64,000 nucleotides of DNA from Candidatus Woesearchaeota archaeon (GTDB lineage: Archaea > Nanobdellota > Nanobdellia > Woesearchaeales > JABIAG01), in the NCBI GenBank assembly GCA_018653365.1, contig JABIAG010000002.1, positions 32,001 through 96,000 on the forward strand. Direction: 5' to 3'. A program made the translations under genes and the position numbers. The notes beneath the pieces are model-generated. The model was given only the letters and a program-made list of their open reading frames with translations. It ran no database searches and was not told the DNA's origin. Each line of letters starts with the position of its first letter. Positions within the stretch are counted from its first letter, which is position 1. Shown here piece by piece: positions 27,815 through 63,970 of the stretch.

Positions 27815-28561
27815 ATGGCTTCTATTGGATTGTGGAAAAAGGCGGCAAACATTGAGGGGGTGGGTTTACTTTCAACTACTGGTGTTTATTCCAAGATTAA
27901 AGGGATGGGTTTGAAAACAGTTCAATGGATTAAGTTTTCGCCAAGTTCTAAAAAAGATATTCTAAATATGAAAAAGCGGTGTTCAGAATTCATAACTAAA
28001 CATACCCCCTGTTTGTTTATTTGGGAGCCAAGACACACTGGTGAGAAAGGTTATATTATTGATGTGAATGAAATAAGTCAAGTTGTTGAGTCATTAGCTA
28101 GTTTGCCTGTTTTGGCTTATTCTTATTTGATCACTACACAAATATCTAATCCTAAAAAGGGATTCATTGGAAGTGTAATCTCTGATGGTAAAGGGAAGTT
28201 GTATTGCGAAACTTATCATGAACCAGGAATTTGTAGTCATCGTGTGTTAAGTCAGTCAAAAATAGATGAGAATAAATCAAGTTTTTTTGGTAGATTCTCA
28301 ACAGTAAATTTCGACCTATTTAATTTGGAAGGAAGTGTTTTATCTTCTGCTAATGTGAGAACTATATTGAATAATTATTCTGGTATGAAGGGCTATTTTG
28401 AGTTTGTTTACGGTGTCCATCTGGGAAATTGGGAGTTGTGTACAACTGGTTTTGAGAATTTGGGTTTTATCACCTTTCCCGAACACGTTGTAAGCGCAGC
28501 TTTAAGTAGTACAGGAAACCGTTGGCGTGCTGAAACATTAAGACATTATTCTGATTTCTGA
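27815..28561 (+). CDS. Hypothetical protein
   Basis: 248-aa ORF, no recognised motif. Confidence 0.55.
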   Translation: MASIGLWKKAANIEGVGLLSTTGVYSKIKGMGLKTVQWIKFSPSSKKDILNMKKRCSEFITKHTPCLFIWEPRHTGEKGYIIDVNEISQVVESLASLPVLAYSYLITTQISNPKKGFIGSVISDGKGKLYCETYHEPGICSHRVLSQSKIDENKSSFFGRFSTVNFDLFNLEGSVLSSANVRTILNNYSGMKGYFEFVYGVHLGNWELCTTGFENLGFITFPEHVVSAALSSTGNRWRAETLRHYSDF

Positions 28562-28627
28562 CAAGGTGAACGTTAGAGAGCTTTTTCAGAAATCTCTGAT
28601 TTCTGACAGAGTGAACAAATAGCTTTT
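28550..28627. repeat. Imperfect ~46-bp tandem repeat containing the palindrome TCAGAAATC-TCT-GATTTCTGA
   Basis: TCTGATTTCTGACA..GTGAAC occurs twice; palindrome at 28586-28606. Confidence 0.75.
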
Positions 28628-28817
28628 CCTTTAACAATCGTACCTTTGATTTTATTTAAGAATGTTTTTTCTATTTTTTTATTACATTTACTGCATTTCA
28701 TATTCTGTATAAATCTGGTTTGATATATAAAACTTACTCATAACAAAAACAATATTTTTGAACTTATCTGCAATAAGTACCAAAAAATATATAAGGCAAT
28801 TAATCCATTTTTTACTT

Positions 28818-29393
28818 ATGCCCGATCCAGACGTAGTTGCAGATATAAAAGTAGTTTATCAAGATCCTTTTCATTTTAAGAATTTGTACAAGCTTATTTT
28901 CCGTTTCTTATTGGATCATGGTTATTTGGATAAAAAGGTTTCTCCTGACACTAAAATGGAAATTTTGTATTCTGAACAGGTAAGATCTGGCGATGTGAAA
29001 GAGTATCATATTTGGTGGAGAACTAAGAAACAACCTAAAAATAGTTATTTTTTGTATAAGATTGATATTGATTATCTTGGATTGGGTGTTAAGAATACTG
29101 AGGTTTTACAAGGGGATAAAAAGCATAAAATGCAAATTGGCGAGATTACTATTCTGCTTAAGGGCACTTTAATGTTAGAAGCAAATGATTCTAAAGGTAA
29201 GTGGGAAACTGGTTTTTTAAGGTATTTTCGTAATTGGTTTAGAAATAAGTGGTATCATGCTAAGATTGAACAACATGAAGATGAATTGTATGAAGATGTT
29301 TACAAATTACAATCTTTTATTAAGGAATATCTTGAACTTAAACAGTTTGGTGTTTCTCCTGAGATTTTCTTTAAGAGAAAGGGTTTCGAATAA
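28818..29393 (+). CDS. Hypothetical protein
   Basis: Likely ATG at 28818 within the 28758 ORF. Confidence 0.65.
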   Translation: MPDPDVVADIKVVYQDPFHFKNLYKLIFRFLLDHGYLDKKVSPDTKMEILYSEQVRSGDVKEYHIWWRTKKQPKNSYFLYKIDIDYLGLGVKNTEVLQGDKKHKMQIGEITILLKGTLMLEANDSKGKWETGFLRYFRNWFRNKWYHAKIEQHEDELYEDVYKLQSFIKEYLELKQFGVSPEIFFKRKGFE

Positions 29394-29430
29394 TAACTTT
29401 TATAAAGTAATTATCTCTCCCCGTTATTGT

Positions 29431-29516
29431 GCCCCCGTAGCATAGTAGCTATTGCGTTTGACTTGTACGTTTTCAAGGATATCAAAAGGTCGTGAGTGCA
29501 ACTCTCACCGGGGGCC
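29431..29516 (+). tRNA. tRNA-Thr(TGT) with a ~13-nt intron at 37/38 (29468-29480)
   Basis: GCCCCCG/CGGGGGC, TTTGA-CT TGT A|intron|A-TCAAA; atypical D-loop (no GG) and TGCAACT T-loop. Confidence 0.8.
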
Positions 29517-29521
29517 TTATT

Positions 29522-29566
29522 ATAACTTGTTTTCAAGTTATGATATTCAAAAATCAGAGATTTTTG
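29522..29566. repeat. Two palindromes 3' of tRNA-Thr(TGT)
   Basis: ATAACTTG-TTTT-CAAGTTAT and CAAAAATC-AGA-GATTTTTG. Confidence 0.75.
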
Positions 29567-29576
29567 TTTTATTATC

Positions 29577-61638: not shown

Positions 61639-61640
61639 TA

Positions 61641-61684
61641 AAAGTTTGAATACTCAGAACGAAGTGAGGTTGTGTTTAAACTTT
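61641..61684 (+). repeat. GAACGAAGTGA-capped 13-bp hairpin between convergent genes
   Basis: AAAGTTTGAATAC/GTGTTTAAACTTT with motif at 61657-61667. Confidence 0.75.
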
Positions 61685-62368
61685 GATTGTTTTATGCACA
61701 AATAATGCTTTTAGTTTGTCTTTGAATAAGAAAATTGATAAGATTACACTTCCAGCAAATGCGAATACAATTAGTGCTAGGTTAAATACTGGGTTAGTGA
61801 ATGAATCACCTAATGCCGCTGCAATGAATACTGTTGGCAAGGCCCCAATTAGCATGATGAGGAAGAATTCCTTTAATTTTAGTTTTGCTAGTGCTGCAGA
61901 GATTACTATTAGTTCATTAGGAAAGATGGGGATTAACCGTGCTACATATATTGCATACACTGCATCTTTTTTCATCAGTTTGTTGAGGTATTTCAAATCA
62001 TTAAGTTTGCCTTTTTCTTTTACAAATTTGTTATTGAACTTTTTTACTATCATAAATAGCAGTAGTGAACCTATTAGCAATCCGGTCAAACTATAAAATG
62101 CCCCTTTTAGCGTTCCAAATAAAAATCCTGAAAGTATCATTAATAAAAATGTTGGAATAAATTCAAAAAAGGTAAATAATAAAAATATGCCTAAAAAGAG
62201 TAATATTGCATATGCTCCTGTTGATCCAATTAGATCTCGTAACGCATCAATAGAAATTATTCTTTCTATATCATTTTTTATTATGATGAATATTATGAAT
62301 ATTAGTAGTGCTGCGTATAACGGTGCAGACATTTGTTTAATTATTTTTATTAATTTTTTCTTATGCAT
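61676..62368 (-). CDS. TVP38/TMEM64/DedA (VTT-domain) membrane protein
   Basis: SGFLFG..G, ARLIPIFP, IGALP. Confidence 0.85.
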   Translation of the reverse strand: MHKKKLIKIIKQMSAPLYAALLIFIIFIIIKNDIERIISIDALRDLIGSTGAYAILLFLGIFLLFTFFEFIPTFLLMILSGFLFGTLKGAFYSLTGLLIGSLLLFMIVKKFNNKFVKEKGKLNDLKYLNKLMKKDAVYAIYVARLIPIFPNELIVISAALAKLKLKEFFLIMLIGALPTVFIAAALGDSFTNPVFNLALIVFAFAGSVILSIFLFKDKLKALFVHKTIKV

Positions 62369-62429
62369 ACTCCAAAATATAGATTATGCGTATTTAAACT
62401 TTGCGATTTATTAATTCTAAGACTGGGGG

Positions 62430-63146
62430 CTAATTGACTGAACTTGTAAGTTCTATGCTTATTGCGTCTTCTTTTATTTTTATTTTCATGGGGCATTTCT
62501 TATATTCTAATTGATTGTCTTCACAATACTTAATTATTTTTTCTTCATCACCTTTTACTAGAATGTTCAATCCGTCTCCTTGTAGGATGTCAAATTCTTT
62601 CAAATCTTTACTTACTTGTGTTTTTAGTTTTTTTAGCTTTTCTAGTCTTTTATCTATCTCTTTTACTTTTTCTTCTAACTCTTTTGCATCTCCCTTAAAA
62701 TCACTTTCATAATTCATTTCTATGTTGGTTGCAATCATTCCTCCCTGCCCTAATTCTATCACTTTGTGGTTTCCAAAACTGCATACTACTATGTCTGCTT
62801 TACATTTTCTTGTTCCTATACTGCCGGTTACATCTCCAATATAAAACACGTTTTTATTTCTTTCAGTATTTTGTAAAAATGCATATGCTGGCATATCGTT
62901 AAAGATTACACATCCGTTTTTGATTGGATCAAAATCAATTATTCCTCTTTCAGTTTTTATTTCAATTATCTCAAATCCTAATTTTTTCCCGTATTGCGCA
63001 TATGTGTACCATCCTCCCTGGTCGGGTACGTATAGTTTTTTGCAGCCTTTTTTCTTTGCTGTTTGTAATGCGAGAAATATTGCTTTATTTCCTCTTGATA
63101 CTAACAAAATGTTTTTCTTTCCTGTTAGTTTTTTTAGGTTTTCCAT
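62430..63146 (-). CDS. Short PLP-dependent aminotransferase-like protein (DegT/DnrJ fold)
   Basis: SRGNKAI, VPDQGGW, IGDVTGSIG, SFGNHK..ELGQGGMI. Confidence 0.6.
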   Translation of the reverse strand: MENLKKLTGKKNILLVSRGNKAIFLALQTAKKKGCKKLYVPDQGGWYTYAQYGKKLGFEIIEIKTERGIIDFDPIKNGCVIFNDMPAYAFLQNTERNKNVFYIGDVTGSIGTRKCKADIVVCSFGNHKVIELGQGGMIATNIEMNYESDFKGDAKELEEKVKEIDKRLEKLKKLKTQVSKDLKEFDILQGDGLNILVKGDEEKIIKYCEDNQLEYKKCPMKIKIKEDAISIELTSSVN

Positions 63147-63219
63147 CTTTTTGTTTATTGTTTAGTTCTTATAAACTTTTTCTAAATCTTTTTAAATCAC
63201 ATTAAATTCATTTATTGTT

Positions 63220-63801
63220 ATGACCGATTATGATGCAAATTCTGAAGGAGAGCTTCCGTATTTAGATTCGTTTAAAGTGGGAGATTTTGGTGCGATCCTG
63301 AGTTCTGCAGCATTAGCTAGATTAGAATCACAAATGCCTGGTGCTGTTTACATACATCTTGATACTGTTATGGATTATCTTGGAGCGGAGTTTATTGCTG
63401 ATCCTAACCGCGCAGCTGAAACAATTCGTGCTTATTGTGGGCGTTTACCTCCTGGTGAAGGGGTAGATGTTGGAGCGGGATTGGTGGAAGCGTTAAGAAC
63501 TCGTCCTGCGGAAGTTATTAATCAACTTGTTGAACTTGTTTTAAACTCAGGTTTGGTGGATGACGAATTTAGAGAACGCAGAGAACCTGGTGATGATCTT
63601 CCTTGGGGTGAAGAGATAGCTCTTGCAGATCCTGATTCTGGTTTGACTCTTAATTATTTTGGTGAAGGTGTTGCATCTAGTGGTATGGAAGGAACCTGTT
63701 GGGAGGATCGTTTTTATGATACTGAACACACACGTAGGGTGCATGAAAGAGTGTGTGGTGATAATTCTGGCGATTGTGTCCCTGATGATCTTCCTTTCTA
63801 A
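63220..63801 (+). CDS. Orphan acidic hypothetical protein
   Basis: 193-aa ORF. Confidence 0.5.
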   Translation: MTDYDANSEGELPYLDSFKVGDFGAILSSAALARLESQMPGAVYIHLDTVMDYLGAEFIADPNRAAETIRAYCGRLPPGEGVDVGAGLVEALRTRPAEVINQLVELVLNSGLVDDEFRERREPGDDLPWGEEIALADPDSGLTLNYFGEGVASSGMEGTCWEDRFYDTEHTRRVHERVCGDNSGDCVPDDLPF

Positions 63802-63838
63802 AAAACTTTATATAAAATTCTAATAAATCTTTTTTTGC

Positions 63839-63970
63839 GCGGGAGTGGCAGAGTGGTCAAATGCGCTAGGTTGAGGTAGACGAAAATCAAGATTTTCGAA
63901 GTTCGTAAGTCTTCGACTTCAAACGCCTAGTTCCTTAGTGGATGCGCGGGTTCGATTCCCGTCTCCCGCA
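63839..63970 (+). tRNA. tRNA-Leu(GAG) with a 48-nt intron at 37/38 (63877-63924)
   Basis: GCGGGAG/CTCCCGC-A; long variable arm; central helix UUGA/UCAA with 3-nt bulges. Confidence 0.93.

Follow-up and report, generated by a model that had tools for sequence, protein, structure and literature searches.

Rickettsia palindromic elements (RPEs) are repeats of 105-146 bp that enter proteins in frame as well as the RNase P (M1) RNA (Ogata et al. 2000, 2002, summarized in PMC2229807). Here we describe family A, a palindromic repeat of a Candidatus Woesearchaeota archaeon, from a window of 64,000 nucleotides (contig JABIAG010000002.1, positions 32,001 to 96,000; G000:C3:32001-96000, where G000 is the host genome with contigs C1, C2 and C3), to which unprefixed positions refer. 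Like RPEs, family A is a non-coding palindrome of a reduced, host-dependent genome, occurs between genes, in frame within proteins and in RNase P RNA, has no known transposase and is presumed neutral. However, whereas RPEs are single long stem-loops of bacteria, family A is archaeal, measures 19-55 nt with one or two short hairpins, and sits in bulge-helix-bulge (BHB) tRNA introns, a niche that bacteria lack; the likeness is one of behavior, and none of sequence is expected. By this analogy, family A can be said to work like the RPEs without being a member of them, and would add an archaeal counterpart to that group.

Family A also recalls the REP/REPIN-RAYT systems (PMC3116915, PMC3733652) in being a short, dispersed, over-represented and mainly extragenic palindrome of 20-40 nt, with variable loops, compensated stems and asymmetric flanks. 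Doublets, frequent and often inverted in those systems, are common for family A in relatives and in introns, less so in the host genome. Unlike those systems, it has no GTAG or CGTC foot beside the stem (0 of 18 copies) and no Y1 transposase, either in the host genome or flanked by the repeat at 30 loci; its copy number is low (10-20), its stems are A/T-rich, and it is present in tRNA introns. Prokaryotic miniature inverted-repeat transposable elements (MITEs), including Correia, ERIC, RUP and the Sulfolobus SM elements (PMC2229807), are likewise small, non-autonomous, A/T-rich and hairpin-forming, but family A falls far below their 100-200 bp, shows no regular target-site duplication, and had no terminal inverted repeats matching those of an insertion sequence (IS) at the 30 IS200/IS605-type loci searched. 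In the host genome, the longest direct repeat flanking family-A copies had a median of 8 nt versus 7 nt in controls. An earlier note on this DNA had called the palindromes REP- or MITE-like, a membership that the missing duplication, foot and linked transposase argue against.

The arrival of archaeal tRNA introns has been stated as an open question (PMC4090602). In Thermoproteales, similar introns occur across tRNA types and positions, and DNA-level transposition has been proposed (Fujishima et al. 2010, summarized in PMC4033280 and PMC4090602). Similar introns in different tRNA types are found here as well; however, the shared sequence is described there among introns only, whereas the same sequence in Woesearchaeota is also dispersed outside tRNA genes. 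For Asgard archaea, a recent study reports repeated intron gains at BHB-compatible sites, many of them located in the D-arm and overlooked by annotation tools; its tests of copying, of large mobile elements and of reverse transcription gave no general route, and no donor was found among the large mobile elements (bioRxiv 10.64898/2026.10.13.758758). The present analysis followed short dispersed palindromes. A literature search, with most subscription papers outside its scope, returned nothing relevant on REP-like repeats in Woesearchaeota or in the tRNA introns of archaea. Here intron sequence leads back to a dispersed repeat that also lies outside tRNA genes, at sites filled in some relatives and empty in others, so the question of intron origin becomes testable.

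A dispersed palindrome family in Woesearchaeota

The host assembly comprises 1.09 Mb at 34% GC and is 95% complete. Its sequence is present in marine metagenomes, with no RNA run among those listed, and four DNA contig sets covering 28000-37900 were identical, with zero variant alleles. All six palindrome strings listed in the earlier note are present in the window, each at its reported position. The intergenic copies are as follows.

28586..28606, no strand: intergenic family-A palindrome with 9-bp arms and a 3-nt loop
29548..29566, no strand: family-A palindrome between tRNA-Thr(TGT) and the Dus gene, with one arm pair compensated
57431..57470, minus strand: composite copy just past a stop codon, made up of a companion hairpin (57431-57442) and a family-A palindrome (57446-57464) with asymmetric flanks
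60143..60180, minus strand: degenerate composite copy with a companion hairpin (60143-60154) and a variant palindrome (60159-60180); a profile seed scoring 12.3 bits

A 13-nt right-half copy (28550-28562) additionally spans the stop codon of the gene upstream of the first palindrome. The 60159-60180 variant, which the earlier note had included, is a member by its flanks and companion hairpin, although its inner core differs.

Enrichment over shuffled sequence, the lack of which would have refuted the note by its own account, was found at several scales. A pattern with 6-bp arms, expected 0.23 times in the window, matched 3 times there (0 of 100 shuffles); in the non-coding DNA of the host genome it matched 9 times where 0.16 were expected (at most 2 in 200 shuffles). 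The 8-bp arm occurred 7 times, compared with a mean of 0.05 over 168 permutations of its letters. A strict 19-nt pattern has eight copies in the host genome and is present in 22 of 41 genomes of the order, across which its two arms nearly always change together; its reversed control gave 0 throughout. The dispersed palindrome family is real and order-wide in Woesearchaeota. Between close relatives its presence is patchy: in the congener G002 the 28586 site is filled but diverged and the 29548 copy recurs with a 4-nt loop, whereas in the congener G001 the 28586 palindrome is absent, as is the 60159 copy at the orthologous site. Dispersed copies of the composite kind are found in G001, G002 and G004.

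As the earlier note had proposed, a profile was built, here from the host intergenic copies, and the genome was scanned with it; this recovered about 18 members with asymmetric flanks, including a subfamily with a small companion hairpin. Of the eight composite copies, five are no more than 27 nt away from a stop codon, in one fixed orientation and with T-runs on either side, and the G001 copies do likewise, which suggests that composites past stop codons are used as 3'-end signals. A bacterial terminator scan found no match on the repeats, a method that is uninformative for archaea.

Hairpins with the family-A core in two tRNA introns

Two tRNA genes of the window carry a palindrome with the family-A core inside an intron.

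37284..37402, plus strand: tRNA-Arg(CCT) gene with a D-loop intron; valid tRNA after splicing
37304..37347, plus strand: BHB intron of 44 nt at position 19/20, with a full helix-bulge-helix-bulge junction; belongs to the long-form Arg intron family
37311..37324, no strand: palindrome in the Arg intron, with 6-bp arms and a TT loop
63839..63970, plus strand: tRNA-Leu(GAG) gene with a canonical intron; valid tRNA after splicing
63877..63924, plus strand: BHB intron of 48 nt at position 37/38, probably holding a decayed double-hairpin element
63881..63898, no strand: first hairpin of the Leu intron, with 8-bp arms and an AA loop
63907..63919, no strand: second hairpin of the Leu intron, identical to a 13-mer that follows a full element in a tRNA-Ser(CGA) intron of the genome G099

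Both introns have the 4-bp helix and two 3-nt bulges of a BHB junction, and removing 37304-37347 and 63877-63924 in silico yields valid tRNA-Arg(CCT) and tRNA-Leu(GAG), respectively. Judged from the form of their junctions, both would be excised by the splicing endonuclease. The host genome encodes a single EndA of 177 aa, about 70% identical to its best named relatives in Candidatus Woesearchaeota, alongside at least 24 intron-bearing tRNA genes. In DPANN archaea, single-unit endonucleases with an L3 loop accompany many disrupted tRNA genes (PMC5829648). Standard tRNA annotators overlook such genes: ARAGORN missed both on the raw window and called both once their introns had been spliced in silico. 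Separately, the default tRNA scan of the window also misses tRNA-Thr(TGT) at 29431-29516, which has a canonical 13-nt intron.

The 15-mer at 37310-37324 in the Arg intron is the exact reverse complement of 63883-63897 in the Leu intron, as the earlier note had observed. The opposite orientations that it drew from this match, however, come down to the 2-nt TT/AA loop. In each of the two intron families, a third arm similar to the 3' arm lies further 3', so that by architecture the two copies point the same way and their supposed difference in direction is uninformative.

For the Leu intron, the link to the dispersed family is provided by G099, a member of a distant family. A tRNA-Ser(CGA) gene of this genome, which gives a valid tRNA-Ser after splicing in silico, contains an intron that is 96% identical over 27 nt (E 3.5e-6) to the host intergenic copy at C3:105002-105028, including both asymmetric flanks. 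The same intron is 77% identical over 38 nt to the host Leu intron, and a few nucleotides past its complete intergenic-type element it carries the 13-mer of the Leu second hairpin; a variant occurs in a second G099 Ser gene. By itself this 13-mer shows no enrichment: its 8 matches in 151 genomes, one of them in G099, are exceeded by those of its reversed control, and it is informative only by context. Given that the G099 intron combines a full element with the same second hairpin, the Leu intron is best read as a decayed double-hairpin copy, an interpretation that we consider likely. The companion in the Leu intron is a real second hairpin, but it is not, as had been supposed, the CGACT hairpin of the intergenic copies: the arms at 63907-63919 stand in the opposite order to those at 57431-57442, and the two cannot be interconverted by reverse-complementing.

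The Leu intron is wholly absent from the three nearest relatives found, namely the congener G001 and the family members G003 and G004. Its homologues lie in the distant families of G009, G017, G066 and G211 and in tRNA-Ser genes of G116 and G099, while G049 has a 15-nt hairpin-free intron with the same ends. A pattern for this intron, when scanned across GTDB, proved too unspecific and returned chance matches.

The G099 tRNA-Ser genes L465 and L470 contain two or three introns, including T-loop introns of 73-84 nt; these multi-intron genes are invisible to Rfam, although valid after in-silico splicing.

The Arg intron belongs to a long-form family spread over about 19 families of the order, and position 19/20 is a frequent Arg intron site there (about 90 of the matches listed, counted by eye). 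Twenty-four long Arg introns align with the host intron, and covariation is seen among them in the BHB helix, the inner helix and the first hairpin (0 of 500 shuffles). A third, conserved arm is 87% paired with the 3' junction (0 of 500). Pairing between the first and third arms was considered as well and set aside; these arms are 79% paired, but covariation does not exceed shuffles. At the same site, the exons of G002 are identical and enclose a hairpin-free intron of 20 nt with matching ends, and G001 and G004 are intronless at 19/20. The case for the Arg hairpin as a copy of the dispersed element is weaker than that for Leu, the arguments for and against it being about evenly balanced.

Hairpins in tRNA introns across the order

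When the core was anchored to a downstream T-loop, about 245 matches were obtained in 149 of 301 genomes, compared with 78 matches in 72 genomes for a composition-matched palindrome. Forty-three tRNA genes, counting the two in the window, were verified to carry the core inside an intron; they span at least nine amino-acid classes, at D-loop and anticodon positions alike. The presence of the palindrome family in BHB introns, first noticed in the window, thus extends order-wide, in some cases with the full asymmetric flanks of intergenic copies. More generally, the sequence that flanks the selected core in introns is closer to intergenic half-sites than shuffles are (-0.28 versus -1.38 +/- 0.25 for shuffles; 0 of 500), a modest effect.

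Doublets are found in many introns and place the purine-loop copy first in 31 cases against 10 (related genomes are not independent), like intergenic doublets in relatives, whereas most copies in the host genome are singlets or are paired with a different small hairpin. Similar introns recur in different tRNA types across genomes: G009 Leu and G116 Ser are near-identical, G099 Ser resembles host Leu, and Arg isoacceptors share introns. Many Thr, Leu and Gln introns consist almost wholly of a doublet and end in the element terminus with one change that forms a helix strand, and several D-loop introns start and end with inverted copies of the exon end. Host introns, about 870 nt in all, contain two cores, where the intergenic rate would predict 0.06 (P ~0.002); this estimate was made post hoc and takes no account of the bias of introns toward hairpins.

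Degenerate relatives were also seen in other host introns. The tRNA-Asp intron (C1:200372-200462, L450) contains the left arm and loop of a family-A palindrome with no right arm, and look-alikes that are more degenerate still occur in the Lys(TTT) and Gln(TTG) introns.

Insertions into other genes

The host RNase P RNA (RF00373) contains a 41-nt double-hairpin insert with the core (C2:92622-92662, L446), which is absent from G001, G002, G003 and G004 and has no target duplication. This filled/empty pair shows a precise insertion into a structural RNA. In G143, a 54-nt family-A doublet lies in frame within an IS200-type tnpA gene (L171:1457-1510), a single case. Family-A inserts are also found at tRNA ends in relatives (L398, L437), with direct and inverted copies of the target.

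Proposed mechanism and alternative explanations

These observations can be accounted for by a small mobile hairpin repeat, non-coding and often made up of two back-to-back hairpins, which has the palindrome as its core unit and copies at the DNA level to new sites with no regular target duplication. Copies would persist only where they are harmless, that is, between genes, in frame within proteins, at the stem tip of RNase P RNA, and in BHB introns. Because the splicing endonuclease would read the junction alone and remove any loop content, introns should tolerate such an insert. A cassette inside an intron would then decay under selection for structure only, and would spread with its intron by descent or between tRNA genes. 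As to the agent, we would guess at the replication or repair machinery of the host, working on single-stranded DNA that has folded, rather than at a dedicated transposase; we infer this route, along with the movement from genome to intron and the neutrality of the copies. A mobile hairpin repeat that lands in BHB introns is, as a whole, the explanation we hold probable, with some reservation. The landing of the element in introns is well supported, and the seeding of new introns by it is plausible. Of the two roles that the earlier note had offered, landing sites or seeds, the first is supported by introns with full flanks, such as those of G099; the second is conjectural, and at both window sites landing in an existing short intron would suffice.

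Dedicated enzymes were sought in two classes. The Y1 transposase was rejected as the mobilizer, PF01797 being absent from the host genome, the repeat-rich G013 and the single-contig G020. None of 30 Y1 loci is flanked by the repeat, and the sole locus with repeats has them inside the reading frame. No terminal inverted repeats shared with an IS were seen at the 30 IS200/IS605-type loci, the only IS type searched. Reverse transcriptase was likewise rejected, being absent from four of five repeat-rich genomes, including the host, G013 and G020.

Several results weigh against the favored explanation. The searches for Y1 transposase and reverse transcriptase turned up no mobilizing enzyme. The profile of host intergenic copies, scanned on the host genome, recovers neither intron copy of the window, and both score low on flanks. 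The strict core is kept in only 5 of the 24 long Arg introns, the others being compensated variants. G101 has a homologous Arg intron hairpin yet a single intergenic-type copy genome-wide, so that the refuting case named in the earlier note, a hairpin conserved where the intergenic family is lacking, is partly realized. The intron share of the anchored matches is about the same for the control palindrome (roughly a quarter, by eye), and so gives no evidence of targeting to introns. The shared intron families, G101 and the profile miss together imply that neither window copy is a fresh local insertion; the families to which the two introns belong are either old or mobile between tRNA genes and lineages. 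The orthologue comparison suggested in the note counts in favor instead: hairpin-free introns do exist at both sites, of 20 nt in G002 (Arg) and of 15 nt in G049 (Leu).

Beyond landing in existing introns, the cassette may itself create them, with the inverted target copy supplying the 4-bp exon-intron helix and the double hairpin the stem. This extension is compatible with the mobile-repeat explanation, and we regard it as possible but somewhat improbable. The nearly all-doublet introns with their one helix-forming change, the inverted exon-end copies bordering D-loop introns, the complete lack of the Leu intron in the three nearest relatives, and the direct and inverted target copies at tRNA 3' ends (L398, L437) all fit it. 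However, the missing intron could reflect loss, family A shows no target duplication in the host genome, and short cassette-free introns with the same ends occur at both window sites elsewhere (G002, G049), so that landing alone explains the Arg and Leu cases. Broader still, and doubtful, is the idea that transposase-free folded DNA cassettes of 20-55 nt are a general source of tRNA introns in DPANN, the inverted target copy writing the BHB motif at insertion; if true, archaea would gain introns through a concrete mechanism at the DNA level, with a host enzyme as its driver. The hairpins could instead have arisen in place by fold-back (template-switch) duplication, their likeness to the family amounting to a 5-6-bp A/T-rich core. 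For the Arg intron, where this is most plausible, local fold-back duplication of junction sequence is a serious alternative: the hairpin arm is complementary to the third conserved arm that pairs with the 3' junction, a 6-nt D-loop copy flanks the hairpin in the host genome, and the core drifts with compensation and has no profile match. As a general account it is unlikely, leaving unexplained the G099 introns with 27 nt of element, both flanks and an identical second hairpin, the RNase P insert, and the threefold excess over the matched palindrome.

The remaining alternatives concern the intergenic copies. These could be functional 3'-end signals (terminators, mRNA-stability hairpins or protein-binding sites) whose mobility is ancient or secondary; the fixed placement of composites past stop codons in the host and G001 speaks for such a role, as do the two sites common to the host and G002. 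Since this leaves the copies in introns, in RNase P RNA and in frame in tnpA unaccounted for, and since presence is patchy between congeners, we consider it quite improbable as the overall explanation. The direction may also be reversed, with introns as the reservoir and excised or transposing introns seeding intergenic copies, a mis-targeted version of the Thermoproteales process. The introns of G009 Leu and G116 Ser, near-identical although they differ in tRNA type and family, are in keeping with this, as are the many copies that adjoin tRNA genes and the resemblance of the element's 5' flank to the start of a short G189 Ser intron. Yet in every genome examined the intergenic copies, which have no BHB ends, are more numerous than those in introns, and reverse transcriptase is missing from the host and from three of four other repeat-rich genomes, making this direction very unlikely.

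Other repeats and features

A second repeat, family B, has a short GNA-type mini-hairpin as its core and adjoins both tRNA genes described above.

37405..37465, plus strand: family-B insert at the tRNA-Arg 3' end, with 14 nt of the tRNA end duplicated (37391-37404 and 37452-37465)
63973..64000, plus strand: family-B insert past tRNA-Leu, with an 18-nt duplication of the tRNA 3' end just outside the window edge

Family B also occurs at 10121-10160 and 61657-61666, and the insert after tRNA-Arg is absent in G002. Family B is found at the 3' ends of Arg, Leu, Phe, Ser and Lys tRNAs with an 11-18-nt duplication of the tRNA end, and inside the host tRNA-Ser(GGA) intron (C3:102851). Flanking direct repeats of at least 12 nt accompany 6 of 12 cases, versus 2% of controls, often together with inverted copies. 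A third repeated non-coding motif, with 13 copies of a 9-mer, forms a palindrome after some tRNA genes (C2, near tRNA-Gly and tRNA-Leu(CAA)).

The tRNA-Leu(CAA) introns at position 37/38 have a different character. Across the order, including the host (C2:81933-82093, minus strand, L447), they show a layout resembling a box D'/C' guide RNA: a complement to their own anticodon loop, a D'-like box, a hairpin, and then a C'-like box. The position of the D'-like box is such that C34 pairs with the fifth base upstream. The layout resembles the euryarchaeal tRNA-Trp intron guide, and is shared by the host Trp intron (L449) and the intron of a CAT-anticodon tRNA (L448). These introns may encode a predicted Cm34 guide in tRNA-Leu, possibly undescribed.

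Two protein-coding genes of the window also contain repeats. A large gene at 25670-26780 has four repeats of about 100 aa, and a gene at 40372-41000 has long Glu/Ala/Pro-rich low-complexity repeats; each probably encodes a surface protein.

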